A DNA stretch of 64,000 bases, taken from contig OX597825.1 in NCBI GenBank assembly GCA_951406725.2, positions 44,826,001 through 44,890,000 on the forward strand, written 5' to 3'. The DNA comes from Octopus vulgaris (Eukaryota). The notes under the pieces were generated by a model that was not told the DNA's origin, ran no database searches, and saw nothing but the letters and a program-made list of their open reading frames with translations. Of this stretch, positions 3,286-64,000 are shown piece by piece. A program made the translations under genes and the position numbers. Within the stretch, counting starts at the first letter, position 1; each line of letters starts with the position of its first letter.

Positions 3286-3436
3286 CAAGCTGGACCCGTA
3301 AAAACTTCACGGAAAGCATAAAAAATGTAAATAGAAATAGTATTATTTCTAAATTTCTCAGAGAGAGACATTTCTTTAATGTAAAATTGTATGTCTCTCT
3401 CTTACAAATTTAGAAATAATACTATTTCTATTTATA

Positions 3437-3690
3437 GATCAGTGGCTGTGTGTCACGTTGAAATTTATATGTTCGAACCGTGAATTCAGCAACGCCACCT
3501 AACCAAGCAGCTACTCTGGGTTGATGAAGAGCAATAAATCTGGAACTAGTCGACAAATGTTGTTTTGTGCTGGAGCGGGGATGCTGAATTCTCGGTTCGA
3601 AAATATAAGGACACAGATATTACTTGGGCTAATAAACAGTAACAATATCCTTTACAGGACAGCCATATTATGTTGGTAAAGTAAATTTTA
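3437..3690 (+). repeat. Divergent single copy of the ~350-bp HHR repeat
   Basis: Shares AGATCAGTGGCTGTGTGTCAC and TATAAGGACACAG with the 5300-7090 units. Outer stem TTCGAACCGTGAATTCAGCA/TGCTGAATTCTCGGTTCGAA. Degenerate core TTGATGA...GGAACTAGTC. Confidence 0.7.
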
Positions 3691-3907
3691 AAATAAAAAA
3701 TGAAAGCATCTGTAAATTGTGTGCTGGTGTTATGAGAAATGTTTCTATATTTTTATACTTTCAGAATATAGAAACAAGTGTAAAACCAATAACTATATAA
3801 TCCAACCAAAATATCTCAGTTATGCAAACGTGAAGATAATTACTATTTAGTCTTAAAATACATCGTACCTTCTTCGTTTAGTGGTACGGAACATTCTTCT
3901 GATATTC

Positions 3908-4510: not shown

Positions 4511-5299
4511 TTTTTTAAAAAGAGTAAAAGAAAAGAAAATGTTCCATATCGTAAGGCAAACATGTGTTTAGTATAAGCGGTGAAAGCTAAGACGTAATAC
4601 TTGCTTTCCGTCGCGTAGTAACTTCGCCCTGGACTCACGCTCTGTTTGATAACAACAGCCTGTGCATCGGTCTTTATCTGGGGACTTGGTCTCCAGATCT
4701 GTGAGACCCACAAATGCTGCTGTTAGGACCGGATTAACACTCATACTGACTAAAAAGATTTTCCTGCCCCTACATAGGATATTTTTTCGTTTTCTTCCAA
4801 CCACTTGCTTAACTTGCTCTAGGCTTATCTTGCTCCAGTCTACTCAGCTGACCAAAATGAGTTGTAGCTGTAATTGAAAGGGGTCAGCCTTGTCATATTC
4901 TGTATGAGGCTGAATCTCCCTGAGAACTACGTTAATTTTATCCTCGTGTGGTAATGAAAAGTGAAAGTGACGTCCAATATTTGCTGTGTTATTTGTCTTT
5001 GATTTAACAATGTATCTGTGTATCTATGTATTAACTTTTCTTTCGATCTATGTATCTACTTTCTCTCTCATTTGCTTTCTCTCTGTCTGTCTGTCTCTCT
5101 CTCTCTCTTTCTCTCTTACTTCCTGCGTTCCTCCTCTCTTCCGCTTTTAATTTAACAATGTGTGTATGTAAATATGTATCTACTTTTCTTTCAATTTATG
5201 CATCAATCTACTCTGAAAATACTGATAAACATTTTACCTCTCTCTTCAACTTTAGAATAGTAACAGTAACATCCACAGCTATTTGCTGAGAGAGAAATT

Positions 5300-7090
5300 G
5301 TGTGTCACTTTAAAAGTACATGAGCGAGTGATGCTATCCCTAAGCCAACTGTTATTCTGTGTCGATGAATGGAAATAATCCAGAAACAATGGTCCGCTAA
5401 TACCGTTTAATGCTAAGTAGAGATATTAGCTCCTTTGCTCGAGATGTAAGGACTAAGTTGTGTGTCACTTTAAAAGAATATAACTTGAACATGAGCTAGT
5501 GCTGCCATCTCTAAGCCAACGGTTATCCTGTGTCGATGAAGGGAAATGACCAAGAAACCATGTTCCGTATGTACCGTTTAATGCTGAGTGGGGAAATTAG
5601 CTCCCTCGTTCGAGGCATATAGACGGGATTGCGAGTCAGCTGGAAGAGAGGTTTTTCCTGGTGTTAAAAAAGGTAGTAACATCGTCCTAATCAGGACTGA
5701 CAACTTACGTTAGCAAATAGATTTTGCCCTGTAGTACTGTTACTACTTACTTTTCATTCAGAGATTTAAAGCTAATGGCTTCCCTCTTTAGATCAGTGAC
5801 TGTGTGTCACTTTAAATGTATATACCTCGAACAAGGACTAGTACTGCCATTAGTAAGCCAACTGTCATCCTGAGCCGACGAATGGAAATAAACCTGGAAA
5901 CCATGATCCTCAAGTACCGTTTGATGCTGTGCGCGGACATTAGCTCCCTTATTCGAGGTATAAGGACACAGTTGTGCGTCAGTAGCCAAATGCAAAAGAT
6001 GCTTTCCAAGGGATTCAAAAGGTAATAATAGCATCTTAATCAAGATTTCCAATTTACGTGGTCAAATAGATTTTACTCTTTAGTAGTGTTGCTAGTTACT
6101 TGTTGCTCAGTGATTTAAAGCGAATAGTTTTCCTCTTTACGAGATCGGTGGCTGTGTATCACTTTAAAACTATATGCTTCGAACAAGACCTAGTGCTACC
6201 ATCTCTAAGCCAATGGTTTTCCTGTGCCGATGAATGAAAATAACCAAGAAAACTTGGTCCGCAGGTGCTATTTAAGGCTCAGTAGGGACATTAGTTCCCT
6301 TATTCGAGATATAAACACGCAGTTATATGTCGGTAGCCAGCTGGTAAAGATCTTTGCCTGTTGCTAAATAGGTGGTAATATCATCCTAATCAGGACAACC
6401 AACTTACTTTGGAAATAGATTTTACTCTGTAGTACTGTTATTACTTAATTTTCGCTCAGAGATTTAAGACTAATTTTTTTCTGTTATACGCTATGATTAA
6501 TTATGTGCCACTTTGAAAATATATACTTTGAACATGACCTAGTGCTGCCATCTCTAAGCCAACGGTTATTCTGTGCCGCCGATGAAGGGAAATGACCCAG
6601 AAACTATGGTCCGCATTTACCGTGAAATATCCAAGAATCCATGGTGCGCAAGTACCGTTTGGAGCTGAGTGGGGACATTAGTGGGATCAGAAACCATGAT
6701 CCGCATGTATCGTTTAAGGCTGAATGGGGACATTAGCAATCTTGTTTGATATGTATGGACGCAGTTGTGCGTCGGTAGCCAGCTGGAAGAGATGTTTTCC
6801 TGGACTTAAAAATGTAACATCGTCCTAATCAGGACTGCCAACATACGTTAGCAAATAGATTTTTCCCTGTAGTGCTGTTACTACTTACCTTTCACTCAGA
6901 GATTTAAAACTAATGGCTTTTCTTTTTATGAGTGACTGTGTGTCACTTTAAAGGTATATCGAACAAGACCTAGTGCTACCATATCTAACCCAACGGTTAT
7001 CCAGTGCCGGTGAAGTGAAATGACCAAGAAACCATGGTATGCAGGTTACCATTTAAGGCTGAGTGGGGACATAAACTCCCTTGTTCGTGG
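5300..7090 (+). repeat. Tandem array of ~350-bp hammerhead-containing units (non-LTR retrozyme-like)
   Basis: The unit marker TGTGTCACTTT recurs at ~5301, 5461, 5803, 6155, 6504 and 6939. Each unit has tgtg-YCGAYGA-stem II-GAAA-CCATGG-TC-cgca inside a long imperfect hairpin. Confidence 0.85.
5871..5912 (+). ncRNA. Type I hammerhead ribozyme motif (representative array copy)
   Basis: tgag-CCGACGA-atggaaataaacctg-GAAA-ccatga-TC-ctca. Stem I is tgag/ctca here versus tgtg/cgca in other copies, a compensatory change. Sister motifs start at 5358, 5529, 6223, ~6572 and 7003. Confidence 0.7.
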
Positions 7091-7092
7091 TA

Positions 7093-7512
7093 CAGGGGTT
7101 TCACAAAATAATGGAAACACCTAGCGTCATAGCATCATAATTTTGAAATATCTATAAAACCGTCAAAAGCTTGTTTATTTTTATGTTTTTTGATTTATGA
7201 TTTTTTATTCATGTTTTTTTATCTAGCTTAATCTGTTTTGCTAAAATTGCTGTTTCTTTTCAGATATCATCAGAAAATAGTAATAAAAATTCATTAAAAT
7301 GACAGATCTATCGTACTTTCAAATTGTTAGTGCTCGTATGGCAGGTGCTAGCGTAACGAAAACAGCCGATATGTTTGGTGTATCAAGAGGTACTGCCTCG
7401 AAAGTAATGACAGCCTCTGAGAAAGAGTAAAAAACCTCCCCGTCGAAACAAAGCTCATGAAGAAAACCAAAACTTTCAGATAGGGACCATCGGACACTTA
7501 CGCGAATTGTTC
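7093..7512 (+). mobile_element. Tc1 element 5' fragment (TIR plus HTH domain), truncating the HHR array
   Basis: TA|CAGGGGTTTCACAAAATAATGGAAACACC terminus. From 7299: MTDLSYFQIVSARMAGASVTKTADMFGVSRGTASKVMTA...RKPKLSDRDHRTLTRIV, with stops. Confidence 0.85.
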
Positions 7513-7602
7513 TACGTTATATATTTTAATAATTACTGCAATTTTTTATATATGTAAAGCATAATGTTATACATCTATGTATAATTTTTTTTTAAATAAA
7601 TA

Positions 7603-8000
7603 GGCGCAGGAGTAGCTGTGTGGTAAGTAGCTTGCTAACCAACCACATGGTTCCGGGTTCAGTCCCACTGCGTGGCATCTTGGGCAAGTGTCTTCTGCTA
7701 TAGCCCCGGGCCGACCAATGCCTTGTGAGTGGAATTGGTAGACAGAAACTGAAAGAAGCCTGTCGTATATATGTATATATATATATAAGTGTGTGTGTAT
7801 ATGTTTGTGTGTCTGTGTTTGTCCCCCTAGCATTGCTTGACAACCGATGCTGGTGTGTTTACGTCCCCGTCACCTAGCGGTTCGGAAAAAGAGACCGATA
7901 GAATAAGTACTGGGCTTACAAAGAATAAGTCTCGACTAAAGGCGGTGCTCCAGCATGGCCGCAGTCAAATGACTGAAACAAGTAAAAGAGTAAAAGAGTA
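7603..8000 (+). mobile_element. tRNA-derived SINE family A (OK-like), full length
   Basis: Head GGCGCAGGAGTAGCTGTGTGGTAAG with B box GGTTCAGTCCC, internal TA/GT microsatellite, and tail GTCAAATGACTGAAACAAGTAAAAGAGTAAAAGAG. Several copies occur in the window. Confidence 0.85.
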
Positions 8001-9670: not shown

Positions 9671-9946
9671 AATATCATCTTGCATAAAATCGAAGAAAAC
9701 CTTAAGTCAAATAGAAATCTTAAGTTAAAAAGAAATCATGCATGTCTAGAGTAAATAAATTAATGATAAATAAATAGTGATTTAATATAGATATAAATTT
9801 TAACCCATAGGTTGAGAAAGCTCGCAGACATTATTAAAATATTAACGAGTTTTTTTATATAAGCAATTCATATACACATACATACAAAAATGCAGTAATA
9901 TTTTCCCACCTTGTTTCATATTTATGTGCTTGCTTGGGTATATATA

Positions 9947-10069
9947 TATTTGCCATTTAAATATGGCTAACCCCTAAGGGTGGATGCTACTGTAGTTCGT
10001 AGCCTCGGGAGGACACCTCCTTCATCTGGCTTTAGACACACTTTCTGTGCCCTATCAGCGTTTGCAAAG
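9947..10069 (-). repeat. Fragment of the HHR-repeat conserved domain
   Basis: TTGCCATTTAAATATGGCTAACCCCTAAGGGTGG...CTGGCTTTAGACACACTTTCTGTGC matches 28415-28520 in reverse complement. Confidence 0.75.
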
Positions 10070-10451
10070 TGAGTAGATATTGATTAAAGTAAACAATTAG
10101 GCAATACAGGACAAGAACATTTAATTTCCTTTAATTCAATCTAAAATTTAGCTACATAAGCAATGATAAAAATACTCCGTATGGAGGGAAAATGAAAATG
10201 AATGCTAGCAGATCCAAAGTTGTGCGAATACTCAATATGGAGTACTGCATAACAAATTCTTTCCCTCTTCTCCTTATGCCGTTCCACATAACTATTCTTT
10301 TTGATCATGGATTTACCTAATGCAGACCCAACCTAACCTCATTTAAATAGCCAGATCACAGTGATTTCGCATTTATGCTATTGCCTCTCTTCTCAGTCAT
10401 TAAGATAAGTGCTCCTTGTGGCTATGAGTTGTTTTAACTCTTATTTCTAGC

Positions 10452-15601: not shown

Positions 15602-15731
15602 TAGTGGTTTGGACTTTAGCTGTTCCTTCTAGCGTGAAAGGAATCCTATGAAGGAAACCTCTTATGTGCTTAAATGTACACTGTATTTAGGTAAATCCAA
15701 TGAATTTAGGTAAATAAACCTTCCAAAAGAT

Positions 15732-15836
15732 GGTCAGCAGCGTCGCCTGCAGGGTTCGGCTTCTCCACATTGATAAGGGGAAACTACCCCGAAACTAGTT
15801 CGTGGCTGTCAAACCAGCAAGGCGAAGCTGCTGACC
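15732..15836 (+). ncRNA. Type I hammerhead (U3-A8 core) in an extended hairpin; divergent HHR-repeat copy
   Basis: ccaca-TTGATAA-gggg-aaacta-cccc-GAAA-ctag-TT-cgtgg. Outer stems GGTCAGCAGC/GCTGCTGACC, TCGCC/GGCGA and GGTT/AACC. Confidence 0.8.
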
Positions 15837-15964
15837 TCCCCTGTTCGAAGGTTATAATGGGCACAGGTTTCTGTGTCACATAGCTAGCTAGAGGCAATGG
15901 CTTGTTGGATCTAATCATTTTCCTGGTCTCCCATGTTAGCTTGGCGATAACTATAAATATATAT

Positions 15965-21575: not shown

Positions 21576-21642
<67 letters not shown>

Positions 21643-21659
21643 GAAATATTAAAATTACT

Positions 21660-21911
21660 AAGTCTCTCTAAAAGAGAACAACGGCAGCGTTTCCGGAAAA
21701 TAATAGTTATCGCCATACTAATATGGCATTCTTATAAAAATAAGAAAAAAGCTGTCCGCTTATTAGCTCCATGAGGCCATCGCCTTAAGTTAGCTATATG
21801 GATACAGTTTGTGTATCAAATAGCTAACTTAAGGCGATGGCCTCATGGAGCTAATAAGCGGACAGCTTTATTCTTATTTTTATAAGAATGCCATATTAGT
21901 ATGGCGATAAC

Positions 21912-21916
<5 letters not shown>
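21660..21916. repeat. Palindromic copy of a divergent HHR-repeat conserved domain
   Basis: Arms 21701-21797 and 21820-21916. CGCCATACTAATATGGC and CCATGAGGCCATCGCCTTAAGTTAGCTAT resemble the family domain. Confidence 0.7.
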
Positions 21917-22856: not shown

Positions 22857-22963
22857 AAGCAATAATAAATCTCTGAACGAGGTATAAACAGTAACTGCAC
22901 GACAATGTGAGGTATACTTGCCAACTCATTATGGTTAACCACCAAGGGTGGGTGTTACTGTAG
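22857..22963 (-). repeat. HHR-repeat fragment abutting the Tx1 3' breakpoint
   Basis: Near-identical direct repeat of 28081-28189. Confidence 0.85.
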
Positions 22964-25900
22964 CTCGTGGTAAGTTCTTCTTTTCCAGCCCCATTTTGCT
23001 CTTCAGATGATATCTGAAGTAAGTGAGCAAGCCGGGGCCTGAGACAAAGGATCCTATTGCGACTCCTTCCATTCTTGTACACCACATGCATTCTTTTACT
23101 ACTGCAACCGTGCAGTGAAAACATGCCTCACCTTCCTTCGAGAGTCCAGTTGGCGGTATCATCTTAATCAGAGACTCAGCCGACAGCTGTACTCGTCCCA
23201 GATGCGATAACACGTGTTCTGCGTAACTTATCAAGTCTGACAACTGCCGACAGTGTACAAAAGCGTGCTGGACGGTTTCATCGTCCAACCCGCTTCTTGG
23301 ACATGTCAGTGGCACTGAAATTCCGTGCCGCGATAACTTCTCGCGAACAGGTAAAGCATTCCTATAACACTGCCAGGCCAGGGATCTTTGAAAATTATCC
23401 AAACACCCCGTCCTGAAAGTCTTTTTAAACAGGTTGGTAAGCTGGTCCTCGTCGAACCCCAGAGCCCCTCCTAGGACGTCGTCGTTCTTTGCCTCTACCA
23501 GCCTGCTATAAAATACCGAGGTGGTATTTCCGCAGCCGGCCTTGCCCGCCTTGTGGATAAGCGTGAGTGCCTGTCGGCACTCCTTTTGCCATAAAATCAG
23601 ATTCCGTCTTTTGATGCAACCGGGTTTAAAATTCACTAAGGAAGCCGGTCTCGGGAAAAATTCCCCTGCCAGCGGACTCCACACCTTATCACCCTCCAGG
23701 TGGTGCCAGAGAAGCTTCAGCCTCAACGCATGTCTGCGCATCATCAACCAAGGCATTCCTAACCCACCCTTTAACGGTTCCTGGCAGCAAACGGAGCGCC
23801 TCACAAGTGGCTTTCCTTCCTTCCACAAAAAGCGGAAAAGGATTCGCTCCAACTTGCTAAGCCATGAATCGGGGCAAGGGACAACGGTCAGGCGGTAAGT
23901 GATTACAGATGCTATGAACATCTGTACCACCTCCGCCCTTCCTTTCAAGGACAGAAACCTTCCGGACCAGGTCCGTACTATGGCCTCCACCTTGTCCGTC
24001 ACCTCACTCCAATTCCTCTCCGTTTGGGAGTCTGGCCCAAACCAAACTCCTAGCAACTTAACAGGACCATCTGTCCAGTGTCCCACGGCACTGGACGATA
24101 TCGACTTGCTCCTCCAGGTGCCGAGGCGTAAGCCAATCGACTTGTCCTTGTTAACTTTTGCTCCTGCCACCGCCTCATATCCTCTGATAGCATCTTCTAC
24201 ACAAGGTAGCTGAGCCTCATTGGACACGATGAGGGTGACGTCATCCGCATAAGCAGAAACCGTCCTCCCGCCTCCGATCTCATCCGGGTTACTTCCCAGC
24301 CTCTCCAACTTCCGCAGCAATGGCTCGAGAGCCAACACGTACAAAAGTGGTGACAAGGGACACCCTTGACGAACTGAACATTCGATCGAAAACGGTTCTG
24401 TTAGGTAACCGTTTATCTGGACGGTGGACTTGATGCCGCTATACATAGCGGAGATCCACCCGCGAAATTCAGGGCCCAGTCCAGCCGCTTCGAGGACCGT
24501 CGCCAGGTACTTATGGTCTACCCTATCGAACGCTTTACTTTGGTCTAAATGGACCATTACCCCGCCCTTGCCGGTTAATTTACCCACCCTATCTAAGGCG
24601 TAGCGTATAAGGTGAAGATTGTCCTGGATCGACCTGCCTGGATCGACCTGCCTGGAATTGCTTTCCCTACAAGTTTCTCCACGACAGTCGTCAACCTTTT
24701 TGCCAACACCTTGGCCAAAATCTTTAACTCTACATTAAGTAGAGTTATGGGCCTGTAATTACTAATGTTATCCCCCTTGCTCGGGTCTTTCTGGATCAGC
24801 GTCACCACTCCCCGGCTTACAGAACTGGGAATTCTCCCGTTCTGCTGCCAGTTCGCGTAGACGCCTGCCAGTATTCCCCCGAACAAGTCCGGCATACTTT
24901 GATAAAACTCGTAGGGCAGACCATCCAACCCCGGCGACTTCTCCCCGGCGCATCCGGTCAGTACCCCCTCTATCTCCGCGGGAGTGATCACTCCTTCACA
25001 GCACTCCACCTCACGCCCCGAGAGCCGCGGTCCGCCGGCTAGGAAGTCCTTTAAGGCCCTCCCCCGCTCCAGCGCCCCCCCCCCCCGAACGCGCGGGCAA
25101 AATGCTGGTGAAGAAACTTTTGCATCTCCTCCTGTCCATAGATCTTGTGTCCCTGTTCGTCAGTTAAAGACTTGACTGAAGCTTTGTTACCTCTCTGACT
25201 CTCCACTCGACGGGCCCATCCGGCAACGTTAATACCTTCTCGTTTCCCTGCGCGTAGCTTAGCTCTAACTCTGCAACCTTCGTGTTTGGAGTTGAGGTGA
25301 CGGTACAATACCGTCCTTGCCGCCATCACTCCGGATGCAGAGCCAGATTCCATTGCCTCGTTTAGATTCTTAACTAAATCGTCCTCTATCCTAGACCTAT
25401 CTAACCATAGCTGATTGCTAAATCTAATGGACTCTGAACGAATGGCTCTTTTGAGGGAGTGCCATCATCTATTGTTAATGATGGTGCCACATAATGCCTT
25501 CTGTACTAACACCTTAATCCGGGTACGGAAGTCTTCACAATTCAAAATAGACTTGTTCTGCTTCCAGTACCCGGGTCCCTGTCTATGGCACTTATCTAAT
25601 TGCACCCTACAAGTCACAAATTTGTGATCCGTGTAAGGCACAATGTGAAACTGTGGACAACTAAACGTATCCTTATCTCTTTTCCTAATGAATATCCTAT
25701 CTATATACGATCTGCGTGAGCCGTCGTTGTTACTCCACGTCCACTGTGGAACGCTCGGCTAATCCAGTCGATAACGGTCTACTAGATTAAAGCTCTCTAG
25801 TAGACCCTTGAAGCTAGGGTTCCCCTTCCTATTGGTTGAGCCAACACTGTCGACCCGCGCTTCGAGGACAGTGTTAAAGTCCCCTACTAAGACTACCGTT

Positions 25901-27750: not shown

Positions 27751-27991
27751 TTCTCAAATTATGAGAACCAATTTTTCAAAAGAAAAAAAAAAGATTACCC
27801 CGAAGGTAATAACAATGTTTATACACAGAATTTTCAGCCCCGTAGGGCGAAAATTACTGTCACACAACGGACAACTGTTCAATTCACGAGCAAGCACAAA
27901 CAACGACGAACAAAAAACGAACTCACTCAACAAAATAGGCAGCTAACTTCTCAATACGCAGATGAAAGAGGGGTCCCTAGACGAGTCAAAA

Positions 27992-28533
27992 CACCGGTTT
28001 TCGATGAAAGGAGTCCCAATGCAAATACTTATATCGTTTTTCCAGTAACTTTTCGTCACTGATCTCGAAAAACTGTCTGCAAGCAATAATAAATCTCTGA
28101 ACGAGGTATAAACAGTAGCTGCACGACAATGTGAGGTATACTTGCCATCTCAATATGGCTAACCACTAAGGGTGGGTGTTACTGTTACTTGTAGCCCTAG
28201 GAGAACATCGAGATTTATTAATGCTTGCATACAGTTTTTCGAGATCAGTGACGAAAAGTTACTGGAAAATCGATATAAGTATTTGCATTGAGACTCCTTT
28301 CATCGAAAACCGGTGATTGTCGTACGCTGAGGACAGGTCAATACCTAGAAACTACAGTCCGTGCGTATCACTTAGGTTGACGAGGGAAGGATGACCTCCC
28401 TTTGCAAATACCAAAAGTGCACAGAAAGTGTGACTAAAGCCAGCTGGAGACGATGTTCTCCTGGGGCTACAAGCTACAGTAACACCCACCCTTAGTGGTT
28501 AGCCATATTGAGATGGCAAGTATACCTGACATT
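27992..28533. repeat. HHR-repeat (retrozyme-like) monomer plus inverted, circularly permuted partial copy
   Basis: + strand unit 28211-28533. The minus-strand segment 28210-27992 joins the unit's 3' end to its 5' start. Confidence 0.85.
28321..28365 (+). ncRNA. Type I hammerhead ribozyme, canonical core
   Basis: cgtacg-CTGAGGA-caggt-caat-accta-GAAA-ctacag-TC-cgtgcg. Stem I is extended by GTGAT/ATCAC, AACC/GGTT and TATTTGCA/TGCAAATA. Confidence 0.85.
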
Positions 28534-43123: not shown

Positions 43124-43258
43124 AAAATCTCTGAGCGAGATGTAAACAGAAGCAATACCGATTCGTAATATATAATTGCCAACCAAGTGTGGCGTCCTGT
43201 AGGGGACACTGCTACTGAGGTTTATAACCCCAGGAAGACATCTCTTCCAGTTGGCTAT
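43124..43258 (-). repeat. Fragment of the HHR-repeat conserved domain
   Basis: AAATCTCTGAGCGAG...TTGCCA..TGGC...CCCCAGGAAGACATCTCTTCCAGTTGGCT is the reverse complement of motifs in the 5300-7090 units. Confidence 0.7.
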
Positions 43259-63639: not shown

Positions 63640-64000
63640 TCTCTCTTATATATTGGTAGAAGGAGTATCCATATTTTTGCAGTAATTCTTCATATACAGT
63701 CAATTCTAAATACTCCATCACTAGTTTGCAAGAGCTGGAGTTGCTTTTGTTCCCATCGCAATTCCATATTACTGTCGGTAGTAATTGATATCAAACATGA
63801 AGTAATTATCCTGGGGCATAAATTTTAATGTTTCAGTTATAAATTCTTTGTTAATGCGCCCTGGTAATTTAACCAGAATTTGGTTGCTTCTATTCCATAG
63901 TCCTGTGGTATATTAGCATACATGTTCACAGCATCAAACGACAAAACAAGAATAAAAACCTATACAGAGTAAAAACCTGTAAAAATTTATGCAAGAATAA
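63640..64000 (-). pseudogene. Penelope-like RT remnant (runs off the window)
   Basis: VLSFDAVNMYANIPQDYGIEA; DNYFMFDINYYRQ*YGIAMGTKATPALAN. Confidence 0.85.

Follow-up and report, generated by a model that had tools for sequence, protein, structure and literature searches.

The window, by which we mean the whole 64,000-nt stretch of Octopus vulgaris DNA analysed here, contains at 5299-7092 (+) six head-to-tail units, each with a type I hammerhead ribozyme (HHR) motif. This array is very probably a decayed copy of a ~350-nt non-coding repeat family with a type I HHR motif, here called A1, which likely spread as a non-autonomous passenger (a non-LTR retrozyme) of Penelope-like elements (PLEs). 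The units are non-coding, have a GC content of 0.39 and, when full length, measure 342-352 bp. The array itself is an old, mutation-eroded fossil and likely inactive: its units are 73-86% identical to one another (units 2 and 5 being the closest, at 86%), all six HHRs are lesioned and a Tc1-like insertion cuts the sixth unit; against the A1 majority sequence the units are 83-90% identical, a drift of 10-17%. The array is missing from the TRF listing because its units are too diverged. The preliminary description of this DNA was accurate as to the six non-coding units, their sizes, the short first unit and the extra HHR 3′ halves of the fifth; the units start at 5299, 5459, 5801, 6153, 6502 and 6937, and to the partial first unit that it recorded, the sixth has to be added, which is partial too and ends where the Tc1-like element inserted at a TA (7093). 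The features of the locus are as follows.

5299-7092, + strand: entire A1 retrozyme array with six HHR cores, lacking its 3′ end
5299-5458, + strand: unit 1, 160 bp; only unit positions ~1-165, then back to position 1
5356-5400, + strand: HHR 1, U3 C4; damage to both stem I and the palindrome; cleavage predicted after 5394
5459-5800, + strand: unit 2, full length, 342 bp
5527-5571, + strand: HHR 2, U3 C4; 15.2-16.2 pair disrupted; cleavage predicted after 5565
5801-6152, + strand: unit 3, full length, 352 bp; long hairpin best kept here, arms 5821-5836/5947-5962
5869-5914, + strand: HHR 3, C3 C4; 15.2-16.2 pair disrupted; cleavage predicted after 5908
6153-6501, + strand: unit 4, full length, 349 bp
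6221-6265, + strand: HHR 4, C3 C4; complete 6-bp stem I, disrupted stem III (15.2-16.2 pair); cleavage predicted after 6259
6502-6936, + strand: unit 5, 435 bp; two extra partial HHR 3′ halves at about 6624-6681 and 6679-6736
6573-6617, + strand: HHR 5, C3 C4; stems II and III intact; 3-nt duplication disturbs stem I; cleavage predicted after 6611
6937-7092, + strand: unit 6, 156 bp; ends at unit position ~158
7001-7045, + strand: HHR 6, C3 C4, A6>G, GUA site; stem II disrupted; cleavage predicted after 7039
7093-7520, + strand: Tc1-like DNA transposon remnant, a later insertion at TA and not part of the retrozyme; right end approximate

The element at 7093-7520 is one that we take to be Tc1-like from its terminal sequence; within the window it has one terminal repeat only, and a short HTH-like frame at 7299-7427 matches HTH_23 at E=4e-4, below the cut-off. 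Directly upstream of the array, at 4998-5214 (+), a 69-nt direct repeat (78%) flanks a (CT)n tract, while a SINE-like repeat with an internal microsatellite lies at 7600-8000 (+) and has similar sequence in several of the fetched loci. The SINE-like repeats near the array presumably resemble octopus SINEs. Sequence words of the array locus are also found in two other organisms (0.38 and 0.27).

The HHR cores were searched for with the pattern YCGRYGA-A-stem II-GAAA-six bases-UH, set between the two sides of a 6-bp stem I. It matches six times in the array and, with both strands searched, not once in the remaining 62 kb of the window, against 0.0005 occurrences per mononucleotide shuffle (2000 shuffles). 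Position 4 is C in all six cores, as had been described, and units 1 and 2 additionally carry C3>U. The topology is type I throughout, with one motif per unit (6/6), and the motif departs from the canonical core (CUGANGA / GAAA / NUH, with G10.1-C11.1) in having C4 for U4 and an unpaired A on each side of a 3-bp stem II. The long imperfect hairpin said to carry the HHR could be confirmed, both from its arms in unit 3 and from the fold of the family majority sequence (z = -5.9). The palindromic stem III ascribed to every unit is perfect (ACCATGGT) in unit 6 only, the other units having one or two changes, and the stem I covariation (tgag/ctca) exists but is a single event in a single unit, the solid covariation being that between families. 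At least one lesion is present in the core or stems of each HHR, so that the idea of a working self-cleaving array has to give way to that of a decayed fossil; judged by these lesions, the array also falls outside the ‘active’ class of Li et al. 2026. The Rfam check proposed in the preliminary description returned no hammerhead match in the window even at E<=10, and none at five other loci (L010, L064, L092, L138 and L163), a blank that reflects the limit of the models and is by itself not counter-evidence. The six cores are still recognisable, and core changes in the array HHRs (3/55) are proportionally fewer than changes elsewhere in the units (195/1383, p = 0.07), which would suit a host-domesticated, functional self-cleaving RNA locus; however, with damage in six of six HHRs, neutral decay of the CpGs and a transposon cutting through the array, we regard domestication as extremely unlikely.

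This is the longest A1 array seen, other A1 insertions reaching at most about 710 nt of contiguous sequence. Such an excess of length, together with the internal deletion in unit 1, the local duplications in unit 5 and the closer relationship of some unit pairs, could mean that the locus was retroposed as usual and that the six-unit array was then expanded at the DNA level, by unequal crossing-over or slippage, into an incipient satellite. Pairs of window units share 0-8 derived bases, often 0.15-0.4 of their differences, against a mean of 0.07 for unlinked copies, which points in the same direction; yet the shared variants form mutually incompatible subsets, the units show no homogenisation, and this also fits one long copying event followed by drift. 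We therefore consider local expansion conceivable but not the probable course of events; were it true, the locus would have a different history, but the element would be of the same nature.

The genome copy count, which had also been put forward as a check, identified A1 as a dispersed multi-copy family of the 2.8-Gb genome. With unit 4 as the query, 90 matches were obtained from 40 scored of 469 candidates, and with a near-majority A1 copy 95 matches from 40 scored of 1174 candidates, the matches being spread over more than 20 contigs. No young A1 copies were seen among the scored candidates, since the best other copy among 40 scored was 89% identical to the near-majority query. Insertion anatomy was analysed in 32 A1 loci chosen by DNA similarity, from which the two window loci, duplicates and pattern-picked loci were excluded. 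The copies are dispersed, short (1-3 units) and 5′-truncated, 20 of the 32 loci carry an inverted segment on the 5′ side, and the ends mostly adjoin microsatellites, (TA)n, (TC)n or similar. On the 349-nt unit, main segments end at 326-342 in 19 loci, at 268-284 in 10 and elsewhere in 3, a count inflated by the choice of the best full-length matches; the inverted segments, which are free of this selection bias, end within the same two intervals in 11 of 20 cases (34 of 349 positions; p = 5e-7) and outside them in 9. The two end sites are ~57 nt apart, and no insertion end was found at the predicted cleavage site (unit position 106) among the 32 loci. Because the ends correspond to two internal sites and not to the cleavage site, a cleaved linear monomer did not provide the template end; deposition by reverse transcription, as proposed earlier, accords with the retrotransposition signatures, and the template may have been either an oligomeric or a circular RNA.

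A tblastn search with 24 PLE ORFs against 38 + 30 family-A loci detected no adjoining ORF, with one distant match each, 1.1-1.3 kb off, and no PLE ORF stands beside the units in 20 loci of family B or 20 loci of family D, two relatives treated below (1.5-kb flanks). Since no ORF is attached, the A1 elements are non-autonomous non-LTR retrozymes. The features shared with that class are low-GC tandem units within the ~150-450 bp range, a type I HHR per unit, the lack of an adjoining ORF and a dispersed multi-copy distribution; A1 is thus a non-LTR retrozyme by its testable features, with self-cleavage predicted from sequence, and the earlier reading of type I HHRs in ~350-nt non-coding tandem units stands, the retrotransposition signatures being those of a non-LTR retrozyme.

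The 5′ truncation, the inverted 5′ segment, the two-site ends and the microsatellite targets form a signature of PLE mobilisation that is present in A1 and likewise in D. PLE copies are described as having an inverted 5′-truncated copy, a 30-40-bp tail and a bias towards microsatellites (10.1101/2021.04.23.441226). In work with purified Poseidon protein, AT-rich DNA was nicked on each strand and cDNA synthesis began at two positions inside the RNA, which define the tail, while HHR cleavage is dispensable for insertion in vitro, the main template being uncleaved RNA (PMC11167929). Active-looking PLEs are available in this genome, where 150 of 6136 GIY-YIG candidates were scored and many RT + GIY-YIG ORFs were found, some of them open over 781 aa and 95-99% alike. 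In the mechanism that we envisage, a multimeric transcript, or a circle formed by HHR cleavage and host ligation, would serve as the template; a PLE RT/GIY-YIG protein would bind this RNA through its 3′ hairpin domain and nick one or both strands of AT-rich microsatellite DNA. Synthesis of the cDNA would begin within the unit, at position ~277 or ~334, which lies 170-230 nt downstream of the cut site predicted for the HHR, and would then run back over unit junctions, so that partial-tandem as well as inverted copies result.

An alternative is that the unit is the pseudo-LTR (pLTR) of an old PLE that was autonomous and whose copies with an ORF lie outside the sample; the insertion signature, which is that of PLEs, would agree with this. 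The HHRs of PLE pLTRs share with ours the extra base after A9, the palindromic stem III and variants such as U3-A8 (Cervera and de la Pena 2014, PMC4209133), and one PLE of the genome has C4 as well. Nevertheless, unit position 1 is nearly always preceded by the tail of another unit and never by the end of an ORF, the 38 + 30 family-A, 20 B and 20 D loci are devoid of an adjoining ORF, and the HHR has a 6-bp stem I and a hexaloop, as in canonical retrozyme HHRs; we consider a pLTR origin very unlikely. The clan insertions can be likened to those of the Poseidon element PAc (Frangieh et al. 2024, PMC11167929) in the two internal RT starts giving a tail, the AT-rich targets and the extension of both strands, whereas A1 differs from PLE pLTRs and Poseidon in having no ORF, a stem II of 3-4 bp versus 7-8 bp and an end-site spacing of ~57 nt versus 30-40 (PMC4209133, PMC11167929). 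Nor does it match an autonomous PLE, in which an RT + GIY-YIG ORF lies between pLTRs. Clan sequence was absent from the pLTRs of 40 PLE loci searched for A1 and of 22 searched for all five families, a small part of the 6136 candidates; this counts against the proposed link to PLEs. A 69% match to A1 near the PLE at L062 resembled the pLTR of a partner but was rejected, as it stems from an independent copy of sister family B that lies about 700 bp past the end of this PLE. In a second young PLE family (L059:406-5167), whose pLTR has a U3-A8 hammerhead, the 781-aa RT/GIY-YIG frame follows another, distinct frame of ~330-390 aa; this two-frame layout is unexpected for an EN+ PLE. A PLE reverse transcriptase fragment, 53-64% identical to the 781-aa family, is located in the window itself at 63724-63950 (-).

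A1 belongs to a clan of five related ~340-360-nt families, designated A1, A2, B, C and D. Family A2 is 75-83% like A1; B has 3022 candidates, with ~95% identity to the B majority; and D, with a period of 360, has 2886 candidates, its copies being 95-97% identical to the query. Family C is represented in the window at 3431-3700 (+), 1.6 kb upstream of the array, by an A2-like sequence with a decayed HHR core, which was included in the alignment. At least seven further clan insertions occur within the 64 kb of the window, which suggests that the clan is a very abundant repeat group. Computed folds of A1, A2, B and D reveal the same rod and 3′ hairpins despite different letters: a long rod, tipped by the HHR, precedes a conserved multi-hairpin 3′ domain. 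The cores are CCGAUGA in A1, CUGAUGA in A2 and B and UUGAUAA in D (17 of 18 scanned copies), and the stem III palindromes vary among CCAUGG, CUCGAG, CCGCGG and CAUG. An alignment of 30 real copies, hand-picked across the families and including five of the six window HHRs, has 87.2% of its cells paired and double changes in 10 of 13 pairs (47 cells), counts that are inflated by relatedness and correspond essentially to four or five family-level events; none of 500 shuffles reached the paired fraction or the covariation score, and slid controls gave 11-45%. Covariation, which the preliminary description had wished to see examined, is therefore present as compensatory changes between families. 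In D, 18 of 20 main segments end at 358-359 (query-biased) and 7 of 9 inverted segments end at 299-300 or 359, columns that are homologous to the two sites of A1. Young D copies at L064:481-989 and L178-L197 have a 360-nt unit and a U3-A8 core and run sharply into (TA)n at 300 and 359.

The decay of the C4 position was compared with that of other CpGs. Among 45 non-window A1 copies, the C4-G5 dinucleotide is CG in 25, TG in 6, CA in 10 and something else in 4; at the other 11 CpG sites of A1 the fractions are 0.52 CG, 0.20 TG and 0.18 CA, and the TpG>CpG rate is 0.016. C4 is ancestral in A1, because it decays like any CpG while TpG>CpG is rare, and the U4 of some A1 copies stems from deamination. 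An unbiased pattern search returned 24 CUG, 12 CCG and 7 CCA (n=43), an excess of U4 that might be held against an ancestral C4; this objection was rejected, since the excess is explained by the separate subfamily A2, to which 11 of 15 U4 loci, with no more than 76-83% identity to A1, belong among the 30 pattern loci fetched. At positions 4-5, A2 has 11 U4, 1 CA and 0 CG. Because the U4-rich loci resolve into A2, U4C is likely derived on the A1 line.

A young autonomous PLE with a 4271-bp tandem period (L062:1322-4490, L163 and L129-L132), whose ORF is 99.5% alike between two loci, carries the core CCGAAGA in its pLTR HHR; this HHR has 1153 exact matches, and C4 is found in 99 of the 100 matches listed. 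Candidate C4 hammerheads (CCGACGA), seen as scan matches only, lie near PLE remnants at L164:4547 (-) and L174:2261-2293. Lunse and colleagues are said to have covered variants of PLE HHRs in 2016, and these may include cases of U4C. In a viroid hammerhead, U4C occurs naturally, considerably lowering activity in vitro and permitting infectivity (PMC3088659), and CYGANGA is in use as a hammerhead search descriptor (PMC13481778); the core substitution is the same as in A1 (PMC3088659, PMC13481778), but in the viroid it is a rare population variant (PMC3088659), whereas here a whole genomic family, A1, started out with it, and an autonomous PLE has it as well. The ‘fixed non-canonical core’ formerly taken as a mark of the lineage hence holds for A1, in which C4 is ancestral; it does not mark the lineage as a whole, because the sister families carry U4, nor is it special, because the young PLE and published variants have C4.

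These properties bear on whether the A1 hammerhead was already dead or nearly so, with spread by read-through multimers and PLE-recognition hairpins alone and neither cleavage nor a circle involved. The lowered in vitro activity of U4C (PMC3088659), PLE insertion in vitro without a need for HHR cleavage (PMC11167929) and the lack of any insertion end at the cut site speak for such a dead ribozyme, as does the weakness of stem II in A1, which has A.A at its base and a broken middle pair in 13 of 29 rows. The HHR fold of A1 reaches -0.2 kcal/mol against -8.0 kcal/mol for the minimum-energy fold, and core changes among A1 copies number 26 against 36.9 expected, a conservation only slightly above background. 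On the other side, the A1 majority retains the palindrome and every other core base, U4C supports viroid infectivity (PMC3088659), and U4C is nearly fixed in the PLE with 1153 matches; spread without any cleavage is thus a possibility that we find doubtful. In our preferred account of PLE-driven spread, an A1 master would have gained U4C before amplification, and cleavage of A1 transcripts would be weak or assisted by dimer formation or protein; if U4C did precede amplification, a probably weaker or protein-assisted ribozyme would therefore have been no bar to it. U4C hammerheads can found successful elements, and scans limited to CUGANGA or to Rfam models therefore miss such elements.

Among known systems, A1 is closest in its features to the animal non-LTR retrozymes of coral, mussel (Mytilus, ~350-390 bp) and axolotl (Rtz331/353; Cervera and de la Pena 2020, PMC7229834). 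Common to both are short non-coding tandem units of low GC (39% in A1), one type I HHR per unit with a 6-bp stem I, a short stem III and a palindromic loop, a strongly self-paired RNA and co-existing PLEs (PMC7229834). A1 differs in its U4C core, in its species-specific sequence and in that its cleavage and circles are predictions (PMC7229834); its mostly dispersed insertions of 1-3 units, PLE-type inversions and two fixed 3′ ends were not found described for those retrozymes in the accessible text of that study. The comparison also draws on PMC6765202. Plant LTR retrozymes, with a type III HHR in two LTRs and a 4-bp TSD, are not matched by the type I, head-to-tail units of A1. According to the available part of Li, Clavereau and Pollet 2026 (bioRxiv 10.64898/2026.07.22.740005), retrozymes of the non-LTR type are PLE derivatives that lack autonomy, the same origin and mobiliser that we propose for A1; most of their families have <=7 units, the study covers 31 vertebrates along with 3 insects and one coral, and of 9 Xenopus retrozyme dimers put to the test only 1 cleaved. 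The link to PLEs was drawn there from co-occurrence and pLTR homology, whereas for A1 it is drawn from insertion anatomy, pLTR homology not having been found (10.64898/2026.07.22.740005).

Both the kind of element, a non-LTR retrozyme, and the core variant are already known; what is added is the family, the clan-wide PLE-type two-site signature and young D as a test system. As a fossil repeat the array itself matters little, and the clan matters more. Mobilisation of animal non-LTR retrozymes has so far been deduced from co-occurrence and pLTR similarity, as far as the accessible text goes (10.64898/2026.07.22.740005), while the clan insertions carry the PLE signature biochemically described in 2024, at homologous positions in an old (A1) and a young (D) family. 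That signature therefore predicts RNA hairpins bound by PLE protein, which is testable with D and the intact-looking PLE ORFs of the genome. Our literature search found no description of the family, although Repbase or Dfam may already list A1 as a PLE repeat or one without a name; for cephalopods, Penelope repeats are reported in an account whose accessible text leaves ribozymes unmentioned (PMC8967140).

More tentatively, and as a reading that we would not yet favour, we propose that the clan is an undescribed and very abundant group of at least five families in which the ribozyme core has been free to switch (CUGAUGA, CCGAUGA, UUGAUAA) while the 3′ multi-hairpin domain and the two RT start sites stayed fixed. 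This domain might be a sequence-divergent structural handle for the Penelope RT, and the repeated fixation of U4C, in a retrozyme and in an autonomous PLE, might be the outcome of selection favouring a weakened, protein-assisted ribozyme by which the multimeric template is spared. If this is true, young family D would be a ready system for showing directly how animal retrozymes are mobilised.

Family D is in any case a better test object than the array. For the array itself no RNA source is on record, a blank that does not count as evidence. Contigs of four runs, which are RNA only by guess, gave 96 pieces against an A1 copy at 80%, with 0 at 99% or above and no unit-to-unit joint; against D at 90% they gave 196 pieces from four studies, 14 of them at 99% or above, with an end-to-start joint in two runs. 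This coverage of D is explained equally well by DNA or tandem read-through, contigs being unable to tell a circle from a tandem. Within the window, D-related fragments are found at 15696-15917 (+) and, as an inverted pair, at 21638-21916. Fragments of B or close relatives lie at 9945-10072 (-), 22860-22968 (-) and 43125-43258 (-), and another, at 27989-28525 on both strands, has an inverted 5′ layout.
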